From NCBI GenBank assembly GCA_964106915.2, contig OZ066916.1: a DNA stretch of 64,000 nt; one strand, given 5' to 3'. Shown in pieces: positions 9,064 to 63,880 of the stretch; position 1 is the stretch's first letter, and the number at the start of each line of letters is the position of its first letter. Below the pieces are notes generated by a model. That model searched no databases, was not told the DNA's origin, and worked only from the letters and a program-made list of their open reading frames with translations. Source of the stretch: Podarcis gaigeae (lineage: Eukaryota). The translations under genes were made by a program, and so were the position numbers.

Positions 9064-9487
9064 CAATACAAAGGGATTGGTGATTCTGGGTGGCCCCTGC
9101 TAGGATCCTGGGGAGGACCACTTGGTAGCCTCCCTACCACCTTTTAGGCCTAGGAATGGACAAATCCATCCACCCATTTCCATTTCTCTCAGTTTTTCAG
9201 TTTTCCTTGCACTCATTATTTGCTTTTATGTACATTTTAATATAACTCGTTCAGAGAGCCTTGATGTGGAATGGTATATAAATTCAGGTAATAACTATCT
9301 TATGTATCATCCAAAGAATATAAATATTATGCCAGAATCCAATCAACAATAATCAATCAGCACAACCCAGCCCAGGATGATAAATACCAGTGAAGCTGTT
9401 ACTTCCTGGATACACAACTATTATTTCTGGGTAAAGCCTGGTCTTCATGAATTCTTCAGCATTCATTTAAAGTAGGTTATGTTTTTC

Positions 9488-9831
9488 TCTTGAGAGTCCC
9501 ATGGACTGCAAGAAGATCAAACCTCTCCATACTGAAGGAAATCAACCCTGAGTGCTCACTGGAAGGACAGATTGTGAAGCTGAGGCTCCAGTACTTTGGC
9601 CACCTCATGAGAAGAGAAGACTCCCTGGAGAAGACCCTGATGTTGGGAAAGATGGAGGGCACAAGGAGAAGGGGACGGCAGAGGACGAGATGGTTGGATA
9701 GTGTTTTCGAGGTTACCAGCATGAGTTTGAGCAAACTGCGGGAGGCAGTGGAGGACAGAGGTGCCTGGCGTTCTCTGGTCCATGGGGTCACGAAGAGTCG
9801 GACACGACTAAACGACTAAACAACAACAACA
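9488..9831 (+). mobile_element. Bov-B (RTE) LINE 3' fragment
   Basis: RVPWTARRSNLSILKEINPECSLEG...HGVTKSRTRLND; (CAA)n tail; TSD atgtttttctc at 9479-9489 and 9832-9842. Confidence 0.95.
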
Positions 9832-11053: not shown

Positions 11054-12677
11054 TTAGTACTCATTCTATTCTTGTGATTTCAGTTTGTTTTAAACCATTT
11101 TAAATGTTGTGTTTTAAATTGTTGTGACCTGCCCTGGGACCTAATGATGAAGGGTGGGTAATACATTAAATTATAATAGTCTGTAGCAAAGCTAAGGGAA
11201 TGATGCAATCTGATTCTGTGCAAGGAAAACTGCATTCACAACTCAGTGCATACACGAGGGCCACTGGGAGGTAATCCTTCATGCGAAGCACTGCACACAC
11301 GAGGAAAAGTGAAGCATTTGGGGGAGCCAGATCATCCTATCAATAAGCACTGTCAGAGGCAAATAGAAATCAGCAAATAGAAATACATTTTTAGTCACAA
11401 ACATGTACATCACCCACCATGACAATGCTGATTTGCAAATAATTTTTTCCTAAAAAGCATGCTCCCCCCTCCACAAGGAGCATGCCATTTATTTTAAGAA
11501 AACTCAAATCACAAACTACTTTGATTAAATGTACCATTACATCTCTATGAATTAAAGTTCCATTTCTAGTATGGGACTCATTAGGTGTGCATTATGTAAT
11601 AAATGATATAGTGGTTGCTTAAGAAAAGAAAAAAGAAAAGAAAAGAAAAGAAATGGCCTTTTAAATATGAAAAAGCTCACTACATCTTTGGCCCCAGTTT
11701 CTGTAGATTGATTACTGTTGAGTGTATGTTTTATTATAATGAAAGTTCATCCATTACAATTAATGGTATTTATTGTAACAAATGACGGCCGATTTCTTTA
11801 AATAAATGAGAGCCACATACTGAGCAAGAGGAAGGCTATGATGGAAGGCCTATTAATGATTAACTAATCATGAAAGCAGTCAAATATGATGTGTGTGGTT
11901 GCAATATGAACGGAGAAGCCTTTGAGTACGAGAAATGAGCCAGAGGAATAATGCATTGAGTTTGGTACTAAACGGAACTGGGTCCATAATATGTTTACTG
12001 GAACCTTTGTTATACATAATGTTAGAAATATTCCACATTTGGTTTTCTGGCAGAGTTTCTTCCACTTCCTGGAAATGATGATAATGTTCTCATCATTGGA
12101 TTTACAGATCTTTCACAGAAACCACTTATTCCATCTGTAGATCAATTTAATAGTACGAGGAAAGAAAAATGATTATGTTTCCCTCCCCATGAAGTTCTGG
12201 GCTGGCAGGTGGAACATACATCAAGGTGTAACCCAGAAGGTAGGCCAGGGCCGGCGCACTCATTAGGTGGTGTGAAGCAGCTTCCTCAGGTGGCAGAAGA
12301 CCCATGGGTACCCCACTTGCCCTGCTGTCTCCATCACTGGCGGACAAGTGGAATTGGCCAAGAAACAGTGCGGGTTAAGAAGCTATGCTGGCAGAGAAAT
12401 GGCTCTGGCATTGACATCAATTTCTGACAAGATGTCGCCGGAAATCAGCACCAATGCCAGCACTGCTTTCTGCCAGTGGCAGAGGTGGCTCAGCAGGCAG
12501 TGCCAGCAGCAGGTTGGGTGGCGTGGCAGAATGGGGTGGCATGTCCCATTTCACCTCAAGTGGTGAAATGGGACGTGCCAGCCCTGAGGAAGGCAGTGGG
12601 CTGATCCACTTAGTTACTGTAGTGAAAACATGTCTAGGGTGGTGGACTAAAGTTTGGACATTGGTAACAACAAAGAA

Positions 12678-13081
12678 TGTATGGAAGTGAGAGCTGGACC
12701 ATAAAGAAGGCTGATTACCGAAGAATTGATGCTTTTGAATTATGGTGCCGGAGGAGACTCTTGAGAGTCCCATGGACTGCAAGAAGATCAAACCTATCCA
12801 TTCTTAAGGAAATCAGCCCTGAGTGCTCACTGGAAGGACAGATCGTGAAGCCGAGGCTCCAATACTTTGGCCACCTCATGAGAAGAGAAGGTTCCCTGGA
12901 AAAGACCCTGATGTTGGGAAAGATTGAGGGCACAAGGAGAAGGGGACGACAGAGGGCGAGATGGTTGGATAGTGTTCTCGAAGCTACGAACATGAGTTTG
13001 ACCAAACTGTGGGAGGCAGTGGAAGACAGGCGTGCTCTGGTCCATGGGGTCACGAAGAGCTGGACACGACTAAACAACAAC
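12678..13081 (+). mobile_element. Bov-B LINE 3' fragment
   Basis: YGSESWTIKKAD.RRIDAFELWC.RRLLRVPWTARRSN...; (CAA)n tail. Confidence 0.95.
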
Positions 13082-13921
13082 ATTAACAAAGAGATTAATG
13101 CAGCACGGCCAAGTCCTTAAGGGATTGCAGCAGTGCAATAGATTTGATGGAAATGGGTACCTTTTATTCTGTATGTAGCAAGATAGGAGGATCCTTGGTG
13201 CTCCTCCAAGCTCACAGAAGTTGCTTTGGGTAGACTTATTGCCCTGTCATTTGTGGTTCTGAAATATTAAAGTGGGACCATAGGCCATTTAGCATACAAG
13301 ACTAACTTTATCCCACTCTCTTTGTGACATTTTCCTTTTCGTATAGGAAATAGACACTTAGTTTGCTTAGTTTGCTGTTTTGTTCAATTTATTTTCTATA
13401 TCTGTCATTTGACTTCTGAGCATCCACTTGTTAGCGTCACATGATGACTGACAGCTGAACTCCTACATTACCTCTATTGAAAGATCTCAGGTGCGTGTGA
13501 GGTGATTTGGTGATGTAAGGCAATATTAAAGTTCTTTGATAATGCCACTCAAAGATGCACAGCTCTGAGGAATTTATTCCCTGTATTGAAAGATCTCGTG
13601 TTTGGGGTGGTGTGAAGAAATATGAAAGCTCTGTCTGTCTGTATTGGATTGTTGTGGCATACATCATACAAGTCAGCCCTTGATGTTGGTACCATCAAAG
13701 GGTGAGTAGGCATATGTTTACTCACTGCTTTGAGCATTTAAAATAGGGTGACTATCTGTCCTACCTTTTGGGCCCACTAATAAAATATTTGAGGGGGCTG
13801 GTTCCCTCAAGGTTAATGGGCATTGCCATTCAAATGGTGTGTGTGCACCATGCATGATTGATTATGCGGGGTGGGGTTTAGATGCCCCCCTGCTAAATAT
13901 TTTATTCAAGTTGGCACCCCT

Positions 13922-14300: not shown

Positions 14301-14773
14301 GCGCTGTTAAGTTGTTTCATGTATGAAATAAAGACCACTTGTGCAATGAGACTTCCTCCCCCCCCCACACCCTCAAAATCTGCTCTAAAGGTTTGAAGGA
14401 ACCCCCCAAAATAGGTTTAGATGGGGGGGGAGACACAAGGAGAGGAGGGGGAAAGTCACCTTGTACGAGTAGACCTCATTCCCTGCATGTCTACACACAG
14501 TCTTTGTCACGATCATGAGGTGCACGACTATGCAAAAATATACTAATTATAAATCTACAATTATACCTATAAATTAGCAGGTACAAATTATATGCAAAAT
14601 TGAGCCCTCTTTTGCCTTCATTTCTGCTGGTGCATTTTCTCTTTTTTAGCAATGCTCCCAAGCAATGCATCCAACCACACTCTCCAACCACACTCTAATC
14701 GACAGAACCTTCCTGTCCAACAAACTAGCTATCTTTCTGCACTCCCAGCCTACTTAAATGTTCTCCCTACAGC

Positions 14774-14936
14774 AGTTACAGATAGGTAGTCGTGTTGGTC
14801 TGCCATAGTCAAAACAAAAAAAATTCCTTCCAGTAGCACCTTAAAGACCAACTAAGTTAGTTCTTGGTATGAGCTTTCGTGTGCATGCACACGAAAGCTC
14901 ATACCAAGAACTAACTTAGTTGGTCTTTAAGGTGCT
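14774..14936 (-). mobile_element. Penelope-like element pLTR fragment, fold-back copy 1
   Basis: Starts agttacagataggtag... like the copies at 25.2 and 38.8 kb; perfect 102-bp palindrome 14835-14936; direct repeat ctccctacagcagtt at 14763-14777 and 14935-14949. Confidence 0.85.
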
Positions 14937-21265: not shown

Positions 21266-21904
21266 GGTAAAGGTAATGTAAAGGACCCCTGGATGGTTAA
21301 ACACTTGTTGTTGTTTAGTCGTTTAGTCGTGTCCGACTCTTTGTGACCCCATGGACCAGAGCACGCCAGGCACTTCTGTCTTCCACTGCCTCCCGCAGTT
21401 TGGTCAGACTCATGTTTGTAGCTTCGAAGACACTATCCAACCATCTCGTCCTCTGTCGTCCCCTTCTCCTTGTGCCCTCCATCTTTCCCAACATCAGGGT
21501 CTTTTCCAGGGAATCTTCTCTTCTCATGAGGTGGCGAAAGTATTGGAGCCTCAGCTTCACGATCTGTCCTTCCAGTGAGCACAGTCAAAGGGAATTATGG
21601 GGTTGCAGCGCTCATCTTGCTTTCAGGATGAGGGAGCTGGCATTTGTCTACAGACAGCTTTCCAGGTCATGTGGCCAGTATGACTAAGCTGCTTCTGGCA
21701 CAATGGGACACTGTGACAGAAACCAGAGCACACGGAATTGCCCTATTTATCTACTTGCACTGGCGTGCTTTTGAACTTCTAGGTTGGCAGGAGCTGGGAC
21801 AAAGCAATGGGAGCTCATCCCATCGCAGGGATTCAAACCGCTGACCTTCTGATCAGCAAGCCCAAGAGGCTCAGTGGTTTAGACCACAGCGCCACCCACG
21901 TCTC
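21266..21904 (-). mobile_element. Sauria SINE split by a Bov-B insertion
   Basis: (ACCTTT)-type tail at left, tRNA-like head with A and B boxes at right; homologous to the 48.4, 62.7 and 63.6 kb copies. Confidence 0.88.
21305..21582 (-). mobile_element. Bov-B LINE 3' fragment nested in a Sauria SINE
   Basis: Minus ORF KLRLQYF.HLMRREDSLEKTLMLGK...; (TTG)n at the left end. Confidence 0.95.
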
Positions 21905-25235: not shown

Positions 25236-25432
25236 AGTTACAGATAGGTAGCCGTGTTGGTCTGCCATAGTAAAAAAAAAATAAAAAATCCTTCCAGTAG
25301 CACCTTAAAGACCAACTAAGTCAGTTCTTGGTATGAGCTTTCGTGTGCATGCACACTTCTTCAGAAAGCTCATACCAAGAACTGACTTAGTTGGTCTTTA
25401 AGGTGCTACTGGAAGGAATTTTTTTTTTTGTT
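25236..25432 (-). mobile_element. Penelope-like element pLTR fragment, fold-back copy 2, nested in a decayed MIR/Squam3-like SINE
   Basis: 54-bp perfect inverted arms 25289-25342 and 25364-25417; direct repeat tcaacttaactcaagtta at 25223-25240 and 25433-25450. Confidence 0.85.
25331..25364 (-). ncRNA. Hammerhead core lacking the 5' strand of stem I
   Basis: Minus strand reads CTGAAGA A GTGTGCATGCACAC GAAAGCTC ATAC; the upstream GTAT is replaced by the inversion junction. Confidence 0.6.
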
Positions 25433-27085
25433 TCAACTTAACTCAAGTTATGGTTCAAGTGGAGATTTGCATATCATACTCCCAGGTTGTAGTCCAACAC
25501 TTTAACCATAACTACTACACCACACTTGAGATAGACCTGAGTTTCATACTAATATGAAAGCTGCTTGTCCTATTCTTGACTGTGAATGTTAAAAGCCACA
25601 GCAGATGCATTCATCCAGGCTAGTGGGCCATCAAGAGGAGTCTTTCCTTCTTCCGCATGTAGGTAAATCCGGCACTTCAAACTATGAAATAAGACTGCAA
25701 ACCAAAGAACACTTACTTGGGAGTAAGTCCCACTGGACTCCTGTGCAGAATAGTGCTATAAGTGTGTTCTCTGGCCAACCAGTTCCCTGTGATTTCCTTC
25801 TTCTCATTCTCATGGTTTTCTGAGCAGACACTTCATAATGGAAAGCAGATGGCAAGCATGTCCCTCTGCTCAGGATGAAAGAAATGTGATAATTATACTT
25901 TGTGCCTCTCACTTACCTTCCACTTTATTGCTGACCTAGTTGGACGCCTTTCTCCAATCGCCTCCTAAGATGTCCCACGGTGTGTGTCTTCGCTCTTCTC
26001 CCTGTCTTACAGTGCACGTTGGTTTTAATATGGACCTTGTGTTGCCTTGCTGGCAACAATCTCACAGCACTCATGGGAGAATTAGTCATACTGAAAACTA
26101 GGTATACACAAGCAGGAATACTGTAGAAGGCAGCGCTTTTTTCCCAGGGGTACTCAGGGGTACACAGTACCAGCACCTCTTTTTTGTTCTTTTCAAAAAG
26201 AAAAACTTCATGGTGAGTACCAGAATCTATTTTTTCTAGGGGGAAAAAAAGCTGTGGTAGCAGATAATTAGAAACATCAGATTTGCAGGGATTGGGGTGA
26301 GGAAGGTCAACAAAATATAATGAGAGATTTTTTCATAGTGCAGATACACTCTAAAACATTAAACATGCAATGACCCTTAAAAATCTGCTATATAGGCAGA
26401 GCATGAGAAAGCTAGAATGACTGTATTGAAATGGTCTAGAGTTCAGCAATTTTCCTATTGTGCTTCCAGTGGCTTTTCTGTTCAGATGCTTAAGAGAATA
26501 ATGGAGATTTTTATGAAGACAGAAGTAAACAGAGAATCTCTAAGACCCACTGCCATTCTTCAAGTCATTTGCAGCCTGAATATGGTCTGGGGATAAAAGG
26601 ATAAGAGAACTGCACTCATTCTCTGAGGCCACAGGATGTTTTCAGACAGACTTTCAAGAACCCCAAATGCAAGTATCTGGAAAAAAACACCTGCTACATC
26701 TGTTAAATGACAACAAGGAGACTTGTGGCACCATGACGCATTATGGCCGGGACTGCCAATATCATGCCTGTGGGTACACAGATATGGCTTTGAGGACTTT
26801 CCCTGGCACCTGTGAAGTCTCTGATGCTCTAGTCCTTAATTTCTCCATTGTCATAAAATGGTGTGGTGACTACCTCCCCCTCCCCCTGCCGCAAAGAAAG
26901 TTCATAGTGTAGTAAGAAGGAAGGAGAGAAAGGAACAGAAAGGAGAAAGGGATTCAGTGATAAGAGATGGCATGGAATAATCTGGGAGAGTTGGGGGGTG
27001 CGCAGAAGGGAGCGATCGGGAGGTAGGTAATCAATTTGGTGTAATCAGCAAACTTGACTGTCTCACTGCTCACCCCACCTCCATG

Positions 27086-28001: not shown

Positions 28002-28722
28002 GCTGGGGCTTCCCTTGCTCTGTTTCTCCACCATATATCAAAATTTGATTAAATTAGAAATTTATAGGCTAGCATCCTTGAGCCTTATATCATAATTTAA
28101 GTGCTTCTTAATTCTCAAGCTGCCTAAACCTCTGCTCTTCGATTTATCTACCAGGATCTTTTTTCTGTGAATAATTATCAGATACAAGCGGTGTATAATT
28201 TAAAGGCAAAGTTGAGCAGACAGTCAGGGCTCCTACGATGTTGCCTGAGACCCTGTTGTGCTTTTTAAAGAGTTGTGATTGTGTGAGAACTCATTTTTAA
28301 AAATCTGCTGAGTACTCATCCCTAGCTAGCAGGAACAGTGATCAGGGATGATGGGAACTGTAGTCCCAAAATTGCTGGAGACCCAAGTTTGGGAAACACT
28401 GGTTTAAAGGTATGCATTTGAGCAGGTTTGATAAGACAGGCTTAGGCTTCATTGCAGTTGAAAATAAGGTTAAGCAACAGGCTTCATTGAAGTAGGCAAC
28501 AGGGCTTCATGGAAAAGTTATCCCAGAACATAAGAAGAAATATGTTGCACTAAAGGTCCATCTAGTCTAGTTTCATGTTCTCACAGTGGCCAACCAGTTG
28601 CCTATGGGAAGCCTACAAGCAGAATCTGAGCACAGCAGCCCTCTCCCCACTTGCACTGCCCAACAACTGATAGCCACAGGCCTTATGCTTTTGATCTTGG
28701 AGGCTATATAGGCATCATGATC

Positions 28723-29216
28723 TTGTTGTTGTTGTTGTTTAGTCGTTTAGTCGTGTCCGACTCTTCGTGACCCCATGTACCAGAGCACGCCAGGCACTCC
28801 TGTCTTCCACTGCCTCCTGCAGTTTGGTCAGACTCATGTCTGAGAACACTGTCCAAGCATCTCGTCCTCTGTCGTCCCCTTCTCCTTGTGCCCTCCATCT
28901 TTCCCAACATCAGGGTCTTTTCCAGGGAGTCTTCTCTTATCATGAGGTGGCCAAAGTATTGAAGCCTCAGCTTCACGAACTGTCCTTCCAGTGAGCACTC
29001 AGGGCTGATTTCCTTCAGAATGGATAGGTTTGATCTTCTTGCAGTCCATGGGACTCTCCAGAGTCTCCTCTAGCACCATAATTCAAAAGCATCAATTCTT
29101 CGGCGATCAGCCTTCTTTATGGTCCAGCTCTCACTTCCATACATCACTACTGGGAAAACCATGGCTTTAATTATACGGACCTTTGTTGGCAAGGTTATGT
29201 CTCTGCTTTTTAAGAT
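28723..29216 (-). mobile_element. Bov-B LINE 3' fragment
   Basis: Homologous to the other Bov-B copies; small internal deletion near 28840. Confidence 0.95.
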
Positions 29217-30120
29217 CTTATTCCTCCACAGATTTGTTTATCTGAAGCCATCCAAGTTGGTGGCCATCACTATGTCTTGTGAATTCCATAACTATGTGCT
29301 GTATGAAAAAGCACTTCCTTTGTCAGACCTGATGAGAGGGAATTCAGTATGAGGACAGGGGGAAACTTCTATCTGCTTTCTGCACACACATCATGCTGCC
29401 TCTCTAGCTATTGTGGAAGAGGGTGACATATATGCTTTGTTTGCTTTCGGAAAGAACTTGGCTGGACAAACTCCAGTGAATGTGTGGGGTGTTGGTGTTG
29501 AATCTACCAGCCTTAGCTTTTTAACGGGAAACAAAATATATGGTAGAATCAGAGATGTATTGAACATTATTGCTAACAGTTACAGCTAGTAATATTTATG
29601 TTATTTCTAATAGTTGTAACTCCAGTAAAAATTCCCACAGACATCTTGCTTGAGTAGAACCGACCACATTTGCTACTAAATATATTTTAGGTGAAATTCA
29701 TGGCAATGCTAGAAGAAAGGAAAAGGCTGAGATTTGGGGGCTCATTTTCCATGATATCTTCAAGTGTTTAATTATGCACTTCAGAAAATGATGCTCAAAT
29801 TGGCTTGAAGCAATGGGGCGGCACATTGTCAGTATTAATTGAAAACTGAATACATTTTCAAGCTGGTTTCAATTAGAACACAGTAAACAAACAATCTGTT
29901 TTGATTTTACTTTATTAGAGATGAAAGTTATGCCTAGGTTCATGATTTAATTTTTTTAAAAACACACAAAGAATCTCAGTTACACACCCACCCACTGTTC
30001 CTTTGCACCATTTTCTTAGTTTAATCACCTGGTATAATTATTAAATATATATAATCCTATAAATGTGGTAATATGCATTTCATTTTAATGATAGGTCTCC
30101 GTTTTGAAATTAGTTTTCAT

Positions 30121-30352
30121 TTGTTGTTGCTGTTTAGTCATTTAGTCATGTCCGACTCTTCGTGACCCCATGCATGCTAGGCACTCCTGTCTTCCACTGC
30201 CTCCCGCAGTTTGGTCAAACTCATGCTGGTAGCTTCGAGAACACTGTCCAACCATCTTGTCCTCTGTCATCCGCTTCTCCTTGTGCCCTCCATCTTTCCC
30301 AACATCAGGGTCTTTTCCAGAGAGTCTTCTCTTCTCATGAGGTGGCCAAAGT
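30121..30352 (-). mobile_element. Bov-B LINE 3' fragment
   Basis: Homologous to the other Bov-B copies; shortest one. Confidence 0.93.
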
Positions 30353-31111
30353 TATTGTTTGGGGATGTACAACCACCCAACCCTCCGCTCCCTTGCTTCT
30401 TTTTAATCTAGGATTTTACTTTGATAAGAAAATAAATGTAAAGGTCAATAAAATATAAGTCTGAAATACAGTAGATTCCTTCTCCCATAGCCTTGGAAAT
30501 CAAGCAGAAATCAAGCATGTCTCTCTCTCTTTGGGGCTTCAGCCTGCAGCCTCTACTTCCAGCTTTTACCTCTCACACACCTCAACTCTGACTTTAGTTC
30601 TTCACTAAACATTTTAGCAACATGGGGCAGGATGACCCCAGTAGTGTAAGACCTTGGTGAGGAAGGCTAAGTCACTGATGTGATGCTCTTCAACAGTTCT
30701 GTATGGGCCTCTAACTTATTGCTTTATGATTGATTTGACATTTTTATATGACAGCCTTCGATGCCTATTCCAGGGTAGTTTATTTTTTAAAAAACAAACC
30801 ATTAAAGCAAAGTAAACAACAACAATCAATACAGCAGCCCATGAAATAGTAGTGCTTAGAAACTCATTAAATGTTTTATGGCCTGCGGAAATAAAAAGAA
30901 CTTTTTCTTCGGCCAAAAAGGCATCAATGTAGCATAGGAATGTATTTTAGTCATCCTGAATATACGAGTATATTGAGTGTGGATGGGCACATACAGGGCC
31001 CTAGTTATTGATGAGTCCTACAAACTTTGCCCACAGAGGACAAAGTGGACCATGACATAATGCCTACTGTCTGAATTGAAAAGCAGAGTCAGATTCAAAA
31101 CTAAAAGCATA

Positions 31112-37729: not shown

Positions 37730-38495
37730 TAATATTCCTTTACTTACCACCCCTTTCCTTGGTAACTGACATGTTCAGTTATAGAGGAGGCTACTACGCA
37801 AACACAACACATTCATTCCACTCATCCATCCCATTTTCTGGGAATACTTTCCCGTTCCAAAATGGCACGGGGCTGGAAAGATAAAAGGAGAAGGCACCAA
37901 GCAGAGAGCTGTTCTCAGATGTTAATCTCTCTTGTTGATCTATCTAGATGTTGCTGGACTCCAATGGTCCAACAACCAACCAATGGTCAGGGATGATGGG
38001 AGTGGTAGTTCAGAAACATCTGGAGAGTCACTGGTTCCCCAGCCCTGGTATACAGCATGCAATAACTTCCTCCAGTATATTTTCTCAGCAAAGTGAGTGA
38101 CTTCAGATAAGGGGGAAATAAGCAAAGGAAGAATAGCTTCAAAATAGTACTAAGAAGTTCATCTTTACCACATACTTACTAAAAACCTGAACTGCATTTC
38201 AGCTGAGGCCAGTCAAAGGCACTGAAAAAACAAGCAAATAAACTGAAACACAAGTGATAATGGACATTGGCATACCTTTTAACTGGACAATATGATAAAA
38301 TAAATGCATTATACACATTAACGCTAATCATAACGCAAACTAATGCCATACAAAATAAATCTGTTGTACATTACAATATATGCCCCTTTTTGAGGTTATA
38401 CTTTTTAGTTACTTTTCACTTGCAATAGTCTACTTATTTAGAACAAAAAAAATTCCTTCCAGTAGCACCTTAAAGACCAACTAAGTTAGTTCTTG

Positions 38496-38533
38496 GTATG
38501 AGCTTTCGTGTGCATGCACACTTCTTCAGATAC
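38496..38533 (-). ncRNA. Second, identical hammerhead motif on the opposite strand (inverted arm)
   Basis: Exact reverse complement of 38692-38729. Confidence 0.78.
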
Positions 38534-38604
38534 ACTGAAGAAGTCTTCCTGTAAGACCTATTGCAGTCGTTAAGAGTCGTCAACAGGCTCATCACAGCTA
38601 TCTG

Positions 38605-38691
38605 CCAATCACCCATTCCCACCACCCTTCTGAGTAATACCCCTCCCCACCTTCTCACTATATAGAAGGGTCTGGAAACTTCTGTTTCAGT
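38605..38691 (+). promoter_or_regulatory. Putative Pol II core promoter in the Penelope pLTR
   Basis: CCAAT 38605-38609, C-rich Sp/KLF-like box 38640-38651, TATATAG 38659-38665 and Inr-like TCAGT 38687-38691 (A at 38689, 30 nt after the TATA start). Confidence 0.5.
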
Positions 38692-38729
38692 GTATCTGAA
38701 GAAGTGTGCATGCACACGAAAGCTCATAC
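38692..38729 (+). ncRNA. Minimal type I hammerhead ribozyme motif in Penelope pLTR
   Basis: GTAT (stem I) - CTGAAGA (CUGANGA core) - A - GTGTG CATG CACAC (stem II) - GAAA - GC - TC (cleavage after C38725) - ATAC (stem I'). Stem III is reduced to the palindrome AGCT. Confidence 0.8.
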
Positions 38730-40341
38730 CAAGAACTAACTTAGTTGGTCTTTAAGCTGCTACTGGAAGGAAAATAATTTTTTGTTTTGACTATGGCAGA
38801 CCAACACGGCTACCTATCTGTAACTACTTATTTAGGTTTTGTTTTTACTAGGTTTATTAATTGAATAGAAATTCCCTGTTTTTTTTATGCGTATTTGCTG
38901 CTGATGTTTTAACCCACGTAAACCGCTCAGAGATTTGTTTAAATATAAATATCTATTGCCCCAATAAAAACACAAACAAACAAACAAACAAACAAACAAA
39001 TAAAATAATGAAGTACTCAATATTGTGATATAGATCTCTTCATATGCATCCTTAAAAGAAATTATATGTGGTTACAAATATGATCTGTGGCGCTTTTGAT
39101 ATACGGCGGGGGGCGGCGCAACCAGGGGTTTTGAAAACTGGAAAGAACTAAAAGTATTTTTGGAGGGTGCTTGGGACAACAAGGGGAGGAGCAAAATCTA
39201 CTTCTTTCCTTTTCCATTTGTTGAGGTGTTCACTGGATCAAATTGTATTCCACTCTAAATATCTTTTTTTGCTAAGTACTAAGGGAGTGCAATGAAACTA
39301 TCAGAAATGTCACTACTCCATTTCTACTGCTTTTCTCTTTATCTTCATTAACTTCATTCAATCCATTGCCTGGATTTCCAGTTCAAATTAATATTAGTCA
39401 CCAGAAGACATGTTTGCAAACTGCTTCTCTCTAGGCCTTAATTATTATGCAAACCATCTGGCCTTTTTGCTTGCATTGTTTCCTTTTATGCCTTTTCTTT
39501 ATAACAACATAATTGTCTTTAAAGATCTGTTTCAACATCTTTGAAGCCTGAGCAGGATATCTTTAACAACTTTGAGATCTTATTTAAATATATGCAGAAA
39601 ATTCCATTCCATTTTTAAAATGTGGCCTGGAAATCAGAACTGAAATGTTTTTTAAGAGGTTTAGTTGGCTTCATCCCAATATTTATTTAATAAAATAGTA
39701 TGACCAATGCAGCTCTAAAGGTTGTCTTGGACATTGATATTATGGAATAAAGGATGCCCCATAAAATCAAGAACATCTTGCAGCCCTCCTGTGTCGGGGG
39801 GGGGGGGGAGACATGAACCAAATAATCATCTGGGACAGGGTGATGCTTTAGTAGTATATTCATCCATTTTCATTTCGGTTATAATATTTTTTTCTGTTTC
39901 ATTTCTCTATTTAATTATGTTAGCTCGGTCATATTGGTTTATATCAGGGGTGGGGAACCTCAGGCCCAGGGCTGAATGTGGCCCACAGGAGCACTCAGTC
40001 TGGACCATGGAACATTGCCTAAAATAAAACCCTAACCCTCCTTTAGTCATTTTACTTGGCTAGAAAGTATCCTCGAACTGTGATCCTATCTCTAGCTTGC
40101 CTGAATAGATGATGGAAAATGGCATGTGTGTCTCAGCACATCTCCTTTTACCACATCCACCAGTTGTATGTGGCCCCTGGAAAGTTGCCCATGAGGGAAT
40201 CTGGTCCTCTGGCTAAAAAAAAGGTCTCCCATCCCTACTTTATACAGTGTTGTTTTTTTGTTTTGTTTTGTTTTGTTTTGTCTATTAGCTTTCTTACCTG
40301 CTGGTGTGTTTAAGCTGTTCATTAGGTTAGCTTCTTTGTAT

Positions 40342-40837
40342 TTGTTTAGTTGTTCAGTCGTGGCCAACTCTTCGTGTCCCCATGGACCAGAGCACACCAG
40401 GCACTTCTGTTTTCCACTGCCTCCCACACTTTGGTCAAACTCATGCTGGTAGCTTCGAGAAGACTGCCCAACCATCTCATCCTCTGTCGTCCCCTTCTCC
40501 TTGTCCCCTCCATCTTTCCCAACATCAGGGTCTTTTCCAGGGAGTCTTCTCTTCTCATGTGGTGACCAAAGCACTGGAGCCTCAGCTTCAGGATCTGTCC
40601 TTCAAGTGAGTACTCAGGGTTGATTTCCTTCAGAATGGATAGGTTTGATCTTCTTGCAGTCCATGGGACTCTCAAGAGTCTCCTCCAGCACCATAATTCA
40701 AAAGCATCAATTCTTCGGCGGTCAGCCTTCTTTAAGGTCCAGCTCTCACTTCCATACATCACTACATCTCTACAAACCATAGCTTTAACTATACGGACCT
40801 TTGTTGGCAAGGTGATGTCTCTGCTTTTTAAGATGCT
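40342..40837 (-). mobile_element. Bov-B LINE 3' fragment
   Basis: Minus ORF PTKVRIVKAMV...YGSESWTLKKADRRRIDAFELWCWRRLL... Confidence 0.95.
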
Positions 40838-44779: not shown

Positions 44780-45188
44780 TGAGAGCTGGACCATAAAGAA
44801 GGCTGATCGCAGAAGAATTGATGCTTTTGAATTATGGTGATGGAGGAGACTCTGGAGAGTCCCCTGGACTGCAAGAAGATCAAACCTATCCATTCTGAAG
44901 GAAATCAGTCCTGAGTACTCACTGGAAGGACAGATCCTGAAGCTGAGGCTCCAATACTTTGACCACCTCATGAGAAGAGAAGACACCTGGAAAAGACCCT
45001 GATGTTGGGAAAGATGGAGGGCACAAGGAGAAGGGGATGGCAGAGGATGAGATGGCTGGATAGTGTTCTCGAAGCTACCAGCATGAGTTTGACCAAACTG
45101 CGGGAGACAGTGGAAGACAGGAGTGCCTGGCGTGCTCTGGTCCATGGGTCACGAAGAGTCAGACACGACTAAATGACTAAACAACAAC
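44780..45188 (+). mobile_element. Bov-B LINE 3' fragment
   Basis: gagagctggaccataaagaaggctgatcgc... through gactaaacaacaac. Confidence 0.95.
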
Positions 45189-48385: not shown

Positions 48386-48748
48386 AAAGGTAAAGGTAAA
48401 GGTACCCCTGCCCGTACGGGCCAGTTGTGTCTGACTCTGGGGTTGGGTGCCCATCTCGTTTAAGAGGCCGGGGGCCAGCGCTGTCCGAAGACACTTCCGG
48501 GTCACGTGGCCAGCGTGACAAGCTGCATCTGGCGAGCCAGTGCAGCACACGGAAACGCCGTTTACCTTCCCGCTAGTAAGCGGTCCCTATTTATCTACTT
48601 GCACCCGGGGGTGCTTTTGAACTGCTAGGTTGGCAGGCGCTGGGACCGAGCGACGGGAGCGCACCCCACCGCGGGGATTCGAACCGCCGACCTGATGATC
48701 GGCAAGTCCTAGGTGCTGAGGTTTTACCCACAGCGCCACCCACGTTCC
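48386..48748 (-). mobile_element. Sauria SINE, full length and CpG-rich (young)
   Basis: (AAAGGT)3 tail on plus; minus-strand head GTGGCGCTGTGGG (A box) and GGTTCGAATCC (B box). Confidence 0.92.
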
Positions 48749-58700: not shown

Positions 58701-60153
58701 TGAGTTTAGGCCAGATCTTGTACTGAACATCCTGAACTGACCCCTTATTTTGTTGTTGCTAAAGAACCAGTTGGCTATGCAGCAGGAACTATTCATAAAC
58801 TCTGCAGACTGCTTGGTCACACATCCAGGAGATGACAGAAAGTTGCATCTCCCCAAATTACTGTACAATTGGAGGAGGGGGCATGTTCAACAATCTATAT
58901 TCACATCATTTGTATAGGTCTCAATGGGTCTCTGAAAAACTCCAAAAGCGCTGGCACTCCTCATCACATTGCAATAACATGCAAAGCAAAGTGTATGGGC
59001 TCCGCCCTTGCAAACTGTTTGTCCATGTCTTCTTTCAACATGGAAATTCTGTAGGGTGTGGTACCAAAAGCACAATTTCCCTAGGTGATCTAAGGTCTAT
59101 AAAGGGGAAGGTGGTCTCTCAGGTAACTTGGTCCAGATCTTGAGCAATCTAATTCTCAGAGTTCTTAGTCATAAGGAGGCCTGTTTCTTGATTACCTTCT
59201 GTAAGTTTTAATAGTAATTTTTGTAATAAAATGGAGTTCAGGTGTTTTTGGTGGTGCCTTTGGGCAGAAATAACTCACAGAATAAAAGGTGATAGGGATT
59301 TAGTGCAGCACACTATTAAGGCACTCCCATTTCCTTTTGATTCTTGGGTTACTTGTATATATAGTGGTGTCATCCTTCTCTATTGCATCTGATTGGAGAA
59401 AGTTGGCATCACAGTTGCTGGAAGTAACAATGAGCAAGACTATTGCTCTGGACTCTAATTCTTCTGTGCCCTCAAATGCACTCAAAGAAAATGTTACCTT
59501 TTCAAAATACAAGTGGCTTTCCCATGTATTGCTAAAGACATAAGCTCAAAAGGTTACTGATAGAGGGCTGCACAATTTTCAGACTGCCAGAGCTCATAAA
59601 CAACAAGCTCTTGTAATTAAATTCCTCCTCTTTATAACAATGTTTTGGTGAGAGTTCAGCTTCCTTTCCCCCCCTGAGGTATGACATTTTCTCATGGTAC
59701 ACTCAATTTTACCTTAATTTGTAGCGTAGAAGTCAGTCTGTAGCTGATGCTAAGTGATTGAAATGCCAGTTGTTTGGGATTTTGTACTGAAGACCCAAAC
59801 ATTTGTACATGCGTATCATACAACAGTAAGGGCAATCTACCATAACTTCTTTCACTGAACCTCTTTTGATTTATTAATGATACAGAATTCAGTACAAAAA
59901 TTATTTATGTCCACACATACAAACACACCGGCACACTTTATTTTCTTTACAGACATATTGCTACTCTCTAAAAACTGGGATGAGTGATTGGAGTTCAAAT
60001 ATATATTTAAATAAACGAATGTGAGAAGAACTTTCTGAAAGCATATTAACCATTCCATACAATAGTGGCTGCCTAGAGAGTTTATAATGTACAAGTGGCT
60101 TCAAATGTAAATAATAGGGGCAAATGTAAGTACAAAGCATGCTTCAAGTGATT

Positions 60154-60674
60154 TTTGTTGTTTAGTCATTTAGTCGTGTCCAACTCTTCGTGACCCCAAG
60201 GACCAGAGCACGGCAGGCACTTCTGTCTTCCACTGCCTCCCGCAGTTTGGTCAAACTCATGCTGGTAGCTTCGAGAACACTATCCAACCATCTCGTCCTC
60301 TGTTGTCCTCTTCTCCTTGTGTGCCCTCCATCTTTCCCAACATCAGGGTGTTTTCCAAGGAGTCTTCTCTTCTCATGAGGTGGCCAAAGAATTGGATCCT
60401 CAGCTTCACAATCTGTCTTTCCGCTCAGGGCTGATTTTCTTCAGAATGTTCAGAATGGATAGGTTTGTTCTTCTTGCAGTCCATGGGACTCTCAAGAGTC
60501 TCCTCCAGCACCATAATTCAAAAGCATCAATTCTTCGGTGATCATCCTTCTTTATGGTCCAGCTTTCACTTCCATACATCACTACTGGGAAAACCATAGC
60601 TTTTACTATACGGACCTTTGTTGGCAAGGTGATGTCTCTACTTTTTAAGATGCTGTCTAGGTTTGTCATTGCTT
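60154..60674 (-). mobile_element. Bov-B LINE 3' fragment, intronic in KCNK2
   Basis: Minus ORF TNLDSILKSRDITLPTKVRIVKAMVFPVVMYGSESW...; TSD ttcaagtgatt at 60143-60153 and 60675-60685. Confidence 0.95.
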
Positions 60675-62650: not shown

Positions 62651-62991
62651 TAAAGGTAAAGGTAAAGGGACCCCTGACCATTAGGTCCAGTCGTGGACAA
62701 CTCAGGGGTTGCGGCGCTCATCTTGCTTTACAGGCCGAGGGAGCTGGCATACAGCTTCCGGGTCATGCAGCCAGTATGACTAAGCCTCTTCTGGTGAACC
62801 AGAGCAGCACACAGAAACGCCATTCACCTTCCCGGCAGAGCGCTACCTATTTATCTACTTGCACTTCGTGCTTTCGAACTGCTAGGTTGGCAGGAGCAGG
62901 GACTGAGCAACAGGAGCTCACCCCGTCACGGGGATTCAAACTGCCAACCTTCTGATCGGCAAGCCCTAGGCTCTGTTGTTTAACCCACAGC
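62651..62991 (-). mobile_element. Sauria SINE
   Basis: aaaggtaaaggtaaagggacccctgaccattaggtccagtc... to aacccacagc. Confidence 0.92.
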
Positions 62992-63548: not shown

Positions 63549-63880
63549 GGTAAAAAAGGTAAAGGGACCCCTGACCATTAGGTCCAGTCATGACCGACTC
63601 TGGGGTTGCGGTGCTCATCTCACTTTATTGGCCAAGGGATCCAGCGTTCAGCTTCCAGGTCATGTGGCCAGTATGACTAAGCCGCTTCTGGGGAACCAGA
63701 GCAGCACACGGAAATGCCGTTTACCTTCCCGCCGGAGCGGTACCCATTTATCTACTTGCACTTCAAACTGCTTGGTGGGCAGGAGCAGGGACTGAGCAAC
63801 GGGAGCTCACCCCATCGCGGGGCTTCGAACCACCAACCTTCTGATCGGCAAGTCCTAGGCTCTGTGGTTTAACCCACAGC
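63549..63880 (-). mobile_element. Sauria SINE
   Basis: Same structure and subfamily-type sequence as 62651-62991. Confidence 0.92.

Follow-up and report, generated by a model that had tools for sequence, protein, structure and literature searches.

Insertion junctions of a young Penelope-like element of Podarcis gaigeae point to a capped transcript that begins at its hammerhead ribozyme and serves as a mostly uncut template

The TATA box in the pseudo-LTR of a young Penelope-like element (PLE) of Podarcis gaigeae appears, with a probability of roughly 75%, to drive a transcript that is capped at +4 and has a second 5′ end at +1/+2 (A38689 = +1), and the RNA template of new insertions would keep both its cap and its uncut ribozyme. 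The family records the 5′ end of its RNA template in several thousand insertions. According to this record, the capped start likely lies on the first base of the ribozyme, the integrated template was mostly uncut, and cDNA was caught jumping from the cap end into the ORF. Pseudo-LTR hammerheads are already known, as are a TATA-less pseudo-LTR promoter in Drosophila virilis (described in PMC2377424) and a predicted TATA box with an initiator (Inr) in Adineta vaga (described in PMC3846280). In the literature outside subscription journals and Repbase, no prior report was found of a PLE start mapped at helix I by a cap-derived G, or of strong-stop-like PLE products. Pseudo-LTR regeneration and hammerhead function in PLEs are treated as open questions in passages of PMC2377424 and PMC8557442; junctions can be counted in this way in any PLE-rich genome, which makes both questions directly testable.

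The insertion lies in the analyzed stretch of 64,000 nt, referred to here as the window. It is flanked by a left target-site duplication of 12 nt (38430-38441, + strand) that is identical to the right one (38824-38835, + strand), of which 3 nt are common to the element end. The inverted second arm (38442-38539, − strand) runs from about +97 back to about +1/−3 and carries a second hammerhead copy and no promoter. The main arm (38544-38826, + strand; −145 to +138) is a 5′-truncated pseudo-LTR of a PLE. It includes the “tail” (38786-38826, + strand), located between two putative internal reverse transcription (RT) start sites at about +97-100 and +133-138, as well as the first 11 codons of the RT-endonuclease ORF (38793-38825, + strand), whose ATG at +105 stands in a strong start context. 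Two promoterless head-to-head short copies of the same family were found at 14771-14936 (main arm from +16) and at 25236-25433 (main arm from +7).

In copies L008 and L061, the reading frame from the ATG at 38793 runs on into a long ORF, and copy L183 contains RVT_1 at 108-257 and GIY-YIG at 479-527; in other copies, the GIY-YIG end of the ORF precedes the pseudo-LTR. No uninterrupted full-length single ORF was found among the copies examined. The features of canonical EN+ PLEs that were observed are an RT followed by a C-terminal GIY-YIG endonuclease, a hammerhead in the pseudo-LTR (as judged by motif and helices), pseudo-LTRs derived from partial tandems, inverted 5′ arms and a tail. A CX4CXXC linker was found ahead of GIY-YIG in L182-L187; a zinc-finger-like CX2-5CXXC linker between RT and EN is described as a Neptune hallmark that is shared with Nematis (PMC8557442, in part). 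Judged by this linker, the element is probably a Neptune-type Penelope-like retrotransposon. The 1.5-Gb genome contains 7,769 perfect occurrences of the tail 30-mer. Identity was 97-100% for the best 40 of the copies scored, and the family is a young one with a divergence of ∼2%. Copies of an older subfamily (L049, L059, L188-L190; 84-90% identity) retained the hammerhead. When a short endonuclease peptide was used to look for other PLE families in the genome, the 150 matches scored of 1,241 all belonged to the same family. Among 18 candidate viral contigs, no relatives were found. The metagenome contigs contained 42 distant relatives, 12 of them with a hammerhead-like motif (14 hits), and none of these 12 was close enough for a comparison of spacing. 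Assignment to the non-LTR retrozymes, which are described as head-to-tail tandem arrays of hammerhead units without an ORF (10.64898/2026.07.22.740005, in part), was rejected, given that the copies are dispersed, mostly head-to-head and derived from an ORF-bearing element.

An earlier note on this DNA had placed a CCAAT motif at −84, a TATA box at −30, a TCAGT Inr, a hammerhead stem I from +4 and a predicted cut after +37, and every one of these was recovered at its position. The CCAAT motif (38605-38609, + strand) is a candidate promoter element and shows no excess conservation. The TATA box (38659-38668, + strand) contains two overlapping registers, one at −30 from A+1 (TATATAGA, 38659-38666) and one at −31 from G+4; the pile-up of 5′ ends suggests that it is functional. 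The Inr (38687-38691, + strand) includes A38689, and the start-site cluster (38687-38693, + strand) includes the likely capped start, G38692 (+4), and the second 5′ end at +1/+2. The TATA consensus is TATAWAWR, and in a TATA/Inr core promoter of Pol II the TATA box lies 28-33 nt upstream of a focused pyrimidine-purine start. The TATA box found here has one mismatch to this consensus. Both C-A+1 and T-G+4 are pyrimidine-purine steps located 30-31 nt from a TATA register, and the spacing agrees with the rule as judged from the copy 5′ ends and the untemplated G.

When the window was scanned loosely for TATA, Inr and CCAAT, four distinct sites were found on the + strand and none on the − strand, while TATA and Inr without CCAAT gave 23 and 22 hits on the + and − strands. 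Because of these four sites, the motif trio alone is little proof of a promoter and was rejected as such. Within the family, differences per covered base amounted to 6/300 for CCAAT, 7/521 for TATA, 9/551 for the Inr and 166/8447 for the whole upstream region; selective conservation of the motifs is not visible, since the family is too young. The promoter is raised above chance by the clustering of copy 5′ ends between +1 and +4. The promoter and start proposed in the earlier note gained support from the ends at +1, +2 and +4, but with a shift of the main start, as the cap-like G is found mainly at +4. With regard to the scattered promoters that the earlier note had suggested for solo copies, TATA was kept in 23 of 90 loci chosen by position, and CCAAT together with TATA in 18. 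Only about one fifth to one quarter of the insertions therefore carry the putative promoter, which bounds its effect on host genes.

This position-chosen sample comprised the first 90 of 100 listed matches to the tail 30-mer, picked without regard to their 5′ content. The main arms started at −5 to +7 in 36 insertions, at +8 to +36 in 19, at +37 to +39 in 2, beyond +39 in 10 and upstream in 23. An inverted arm was present in 60 of the 90, and the per-segment start histogram had its mode at +4. When arms were counted genome-wide with exact patterns of 25-32 nt, which include point mutants and give only roughly comparable counts, 3,422 arms broke at +4, 2,516 at +2 and 600 at +1, and 3,531 read through from −7. 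Of the 10,069 arms counted in these four classes, with +3 and −1 to −6 left out, 65% ended at +1, +2 or +4 and 35% were read-through arms.

The base before +4 was G in 2,237 of the 3,422 arms (65%) and A or C in 1,185. By eye, G preceded +38 and +43 in 27 and 24 of the first 100 listed matches, respectively; neither of these two positions shows the excess of G, which is found at +4 only. The bases ahead of the +4 G were heterogeneous, and in ∼28 of 100 listed matches, judged by eye, the G could be drawn from the joined arm. Among 36 distinct +4 junctions, 15 had a traceable donor; an untemplated base was present in 9 of these 15, and it was G in all nine. Thirteen jumps from the ORF to the 5′ end, a sample biased to loci with an ORF start, joined at +4 in seven cases and at +2 in six. 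Of the seven +4 joins, five carried a lone untemplated G, one carried ATAG, and one a G common to the donor. The G-at-+4 junction was also observed in two older copies (L188 and L049; 85-90% identical). In full-length L1 and SVA insertions, which likewise have an extra G at the 5′ junction, the text of PMC3287187 that deals with the untemplated G ascribes it to the m7G cap being copied. An untemplated G is what a reverse-transcribed cap is known to leave behind, and the transcript therefore likely starts mainly at G+4. This base opens hammerhead stem I and is separated by 31 nt from the second TATA register.

The other two ends behaved differently from +4. Among the first 100 listed of the 600 arms broken at +1, the preceding base was A in 64 and, by eye, G in 21; the A is explained by a slip between two AGTGT copies. 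Before +2, the base was T in 78, G in 11 and C in 11 of the first 100 listed. This T is not predicted by a simple cap model and needs an RNA that ends at +1 or +2, together with an added A, a 2-nt GUGU slip or a misread modified first A. Fold-back through stem I was rejected as the source of the G, given that it fits only ∼3 of 100 listed matches by eye. At some head-to-head junctions (for example, C1:7549335-7549377, C1:63874105-63874147 and C1:64518385-64518427), both arms ended at +4 with an extra base each, which looks as if both cDNAs had copied the cap before joining.

The minimal type I hammerhead occupies 38692-38729 (+ strand; +4 to +41), with a stem I of 4 bp, a palindromic stem II of 5 bp and a loopless AGCU stem III. 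The 5′ strand of stem I begins at G38692 and its 3′ strand is 38726-38729; the core consists of CUGAAGA (38696-38702) and GAAA (38718-38721), and the predicted cut falls after C38725 (+37). An Rfam scan returned no hammerhead at the gathering score, and the call is based on the core motifs and helices. The conserved core, short helix I and loopless palindromic helix III are features of the minimal dimeric type I class. The earlier note had suggested that the transcript removes its own leader; cleavage would need a second copy, because a stem III without a loop cannot form in a single one. Stem II with its loop (38704-38717) is a perfect 14-nt palindrome, at which many insertions fold back; it could dimerize two RNAs far more strongly than stem III. 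According to computed folds, the 14-bp stem II duplex (−30.6 kcal/mol) is the preferred dimer and is far stronger than a double hammerhead.

The earlier note had also proposed that the hammerhead removes the capped 37-nt leader and that the resulting 5′-OH RNA is the reverse-transcription template. The hammerhead core is intact and lies within the first 41 nt, a full transcript has hammerheads in its 5′ and 3′ pseudo-LTRs that could pair as a double hammerhead (computed folds, −11.1 kcal/mol vs. −6.0 kcal/mol per monomer), and the ribozyme of the related PAc (Poseidon_Ac) of Anolis carolinensis is described to cut, but only with the protein present (PMC11167929, in part). However, the modeled double hammerhead is no better than two monomers, and PAc ribozyme mutants insert normally in vitro according to the same text. 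Moreover, only 164 arms started at the cut site (+38), compared with 159 at the control position +43 and 3,422 at +4, and starts at +37 to +39 were limited to two of the 90 sampled insertions. The sequence that ends at +37 was present in 255 local copies; 245 of these continued past the cut site without interruption, and none showed a jump onto a hammerhead-made 3′ end (a new +4 start after +37). Among 100 listed matches, one came near to such a jump. This proposal is largely refuted by the genomic record and is considered very improbable. It is also rather unlikely that hammerhead-made circles, or unit-length RNAs from tandems, are the template of the longer, upstream-reading insertions, as in the model of Cervera and de la Pena. 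The read-through arms pass the start site seamlessly, like a ligated circle, and partial tandems exist, but a linear RNA primed in its 3′ pseudo-LTR, or a homologous jump, would yield the same products, and for most arms an RNA with a linear end between +1 and +4 is required. The upstream-reading arms could thus have arisen in any of these three ways.

Two further explanations concern the start site itself. Four raw RNA runs from two studies (standard RNA-seq, 877-1,475 element-matching reads each) showed no listed pile-up of starts or ends at +1, +4 or +38. The reads are mostly host read-through, since 76-88% of those that match the element run on into unrelated sequence. One joint between ORF and 5′ end, from +196 to +1, was present in 7 and 12 reads and may represent a transcribed genomic copy. 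Some canonical EN+ PLEs have a spliceosomal intron close to their 5′ end. It is improbable that the TCAG is the 3′ splice acceptor of such a PLE 5′ intron instead of an initiator, with the donor and the true start further upstream. A pyrimidine run followed by CAG (38679-38690, + strand) overlaps the Inr, resembles a PLE intron 3′ acceptor and adjoins stem I, where the D. virilis intron ends (PMC4209133), and a branch-like CTCAC is located at 38654-38658 (−35 to −31). In a distant metagenome family (L193, L208-L211, L214, L220, L223 and L224), in which a minimal hammerhead lies ∼130 nt after the endonuclease end, a pyrimidine run and TAG, by eye an unannotated likely intron acceptor, precede stem I in eight of nine hammerhead hits, and no clear TATA box at −30 was seen by eye in the nine hits. 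In two further distant loci, an AG lies 2 nt ahead of the hammerhead core. Given the acceptor-like TAG and the lack of a clear TATA box in the distant family, a TATA box with a start at helix I is not universal. On the other hand, copies starting at +2, +3 and +4 have no common upstream exon, splicing does not explain the untemplated G at +4, and no GT..AG joint was found among the 15 of 24 RNA-read joints that were listed, which is a weak test. The use of TCAG as an acceptor in read-through transcripts may be compatible with a start at +4; ancestrally, the site may have been an acceptor that later came to serve as a start as well. Little weight is likewise given to the explanation that the +2 and +4 ends result from 5′-to-3′ trimming of read-through RNA, halted at a protein-bound stem I, with the G added by terminal-transferase activity. 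The position of +4 at the exact edge of stem I, the extra T in place of G in the +2 class and the dominance of host read-through in the RNA reads are in its favor. However, stem I has only 4 bp, the start region folds no better than shuffled sequences (z about 0), the G excess occurs only at +4, and the TATA box lies at the canonical distance.

With a capped and uncut RNA as the template, the proposed course of insertion is as follows. The ends of the main arms fell between +132 and +145, and for most inverted arms the alignment placed the end between +92 and +104, with a T-run blurring the latter; we infer two internal RT start sites because these ends match the two sites of PAc around the tail. 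The element protein would nick both target strands and prime cDNA internally at about +135 and about +100 on the capped RNA. Each cDNA would run 100-135 nt to the capped end and copy the cap as an extra base, and two such cDNAs would be joined head-to-head to give the typical insertion. With the cap at a distance of only 100-135 nt, the majority of products would be short, promoterless and head-to-head, which is the form of the two other copies in the window. Some cDNAs would jump from the cap end onto downstream RNA and continue, which would produce partial tandems; among the loci examined, such jumps landed in the ORF at +183 to +874. The loopless hammerhead, predicted to cut only as a dimer, would not act as the switch that generates the RT template. 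It would more likely affect the turnover or the translation of another RNA pool, or the 3′-end processing of tandem transcripts. Five of the 13 jumps, from the biased sample mentioned above, landed in a 13-nt ORF stretch at +329 to +341 (L050, L053, L056, L057 and L060), which may mark a hot spot, an RNA end or a third RT start site.

Retroviral minus-strand strong-stop DNA is a short cDNA that extends from an internal primer site to the cap and then jumps. It is conceivable, as a tentative extension of the capped-template reading, that PLEs make a similar cDNA. RT would begin at a distance of ∼135 nt from the cap, include the cap in the copy and then transfer to the leader repeat within the 3′ pseudo-LTR. 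Both systems share such a short cDNA and the subsequent jump. In contrast to the retroviral product, the short product found here is itself integrated, in thousands of copies, and is primed from target DNA, and a homologous R-type transfer is only hypothetical for this element. If this extension were true, repeated jumps would rebuild the upstream TATA promoter before the ORF, and ribozyme-made circles would not be needed to regenerate the pseudo-LTR. The head-to-head insertions of 100-135 nt, of which there are thousands, would then represent aborted strong-stop products, the ORF-to-cap junctions would be mis-aimed transfers, and promoter-bearing solo copies, such as 38544-38826, could seed short copies in trans.

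Among known systems, PAc shares with this element a pseudo-LTR hammerhead, two adjacent internal RT starts that bound a tail of 30-40 nt and an uncut template; in the part of PMC11167929 concerned, the RNA used as substrate is predominantly uncut, reverse transcription begins at two internal positions, and reads ending at the cut site are reported to be absent. The PAc ORF starts in stem II, and the cut falls 26 nt into it (PMC11167929), whereas the ORF found here starts at +105 and only a 9-codon uORF starts in loop II. The RT start sites can be placed here at about +100 and +135 from the RNA start, which is not mapped for PAc in that text; in addition, the protein found here carries the CX4CXXC linker. 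As in D. virilis Penelope, the promoter lies within the pseudo-LTR with the hammerhead close behind the start (PMC2377424, PMC4209133), and an acceptor or acceptor-like AG lies at the 5′ edge of helix I (PMC4209133). The D. virilis promoter, described as able to drive downstream genes (PMC2377424), is internal and TATA-less, and a 46-nt exon and a 75-nt intron precede the hammerhead (PMC2377424, PMC4209133); in the present family, the RNA appears to begin right at helix I, from a TATA promoter upstream of it. The A. vaga Penelope pseudo-LTRs likewise have a putative TATA box and an Inr-like motif, as well as head-to-head inverted insertions with palindromic junctions and target-site duplications (PMC3846280). 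However, the A. vaga promoter is only predicted, with a spacing of 20 nt, and the head-to-head arrangement is attributed to self-priming on an antisense template (PMC3846280), whereas the cap-like G observed here points to sense capped RNA. The 4-bp helix I, the bulged base before helix II and the palindromic positions 15.2-16.2 without loop III are shared with minimal metazoan PLE hammerheads, of which one test case is described to have no activity as a monomer and weak activity as a dimer (PMC4209133). Unlike the model in that source, in which cleavage and circularization supply the template, most arms here keep an uncut 5′ end.

The uORF (38710-38739, + strand) has a weak start context. At +50, an A/G variant was found, with G in 94 of 190 copies, and the uORF stop is kept with either base, since they give TAA or TGA. 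The hammerhead cut would remove this uORF; self-cleavage is reported, in the relevant part of PMC13725137, to allow cap-independent translation in fungal and plant reporters. A near-palindrome and a motif resembling a branch point, which lies before the T-run, are likewise preserved by the +50 variant.

Outside the family, loose strings resembling the hammerhead core were found in the window at 13565, 29329 and 47006, probably by chance, and, close to a PLE remnant, a small hammerhead-like motif was observed within short repeats, both direct and inverted (L229:1588 and the opposite strand). The window also contains two families of abundant short interspersed repeats, one at 9487-9829, 12677-13035, 21305-21582, 28721-29216, 30116-30393, 40336-40831, 44780-45177 and 60152-60651, and the other, which we take to resemble Sauria SINE, at 48386-48734, 62652-62991 and 63549-63880.
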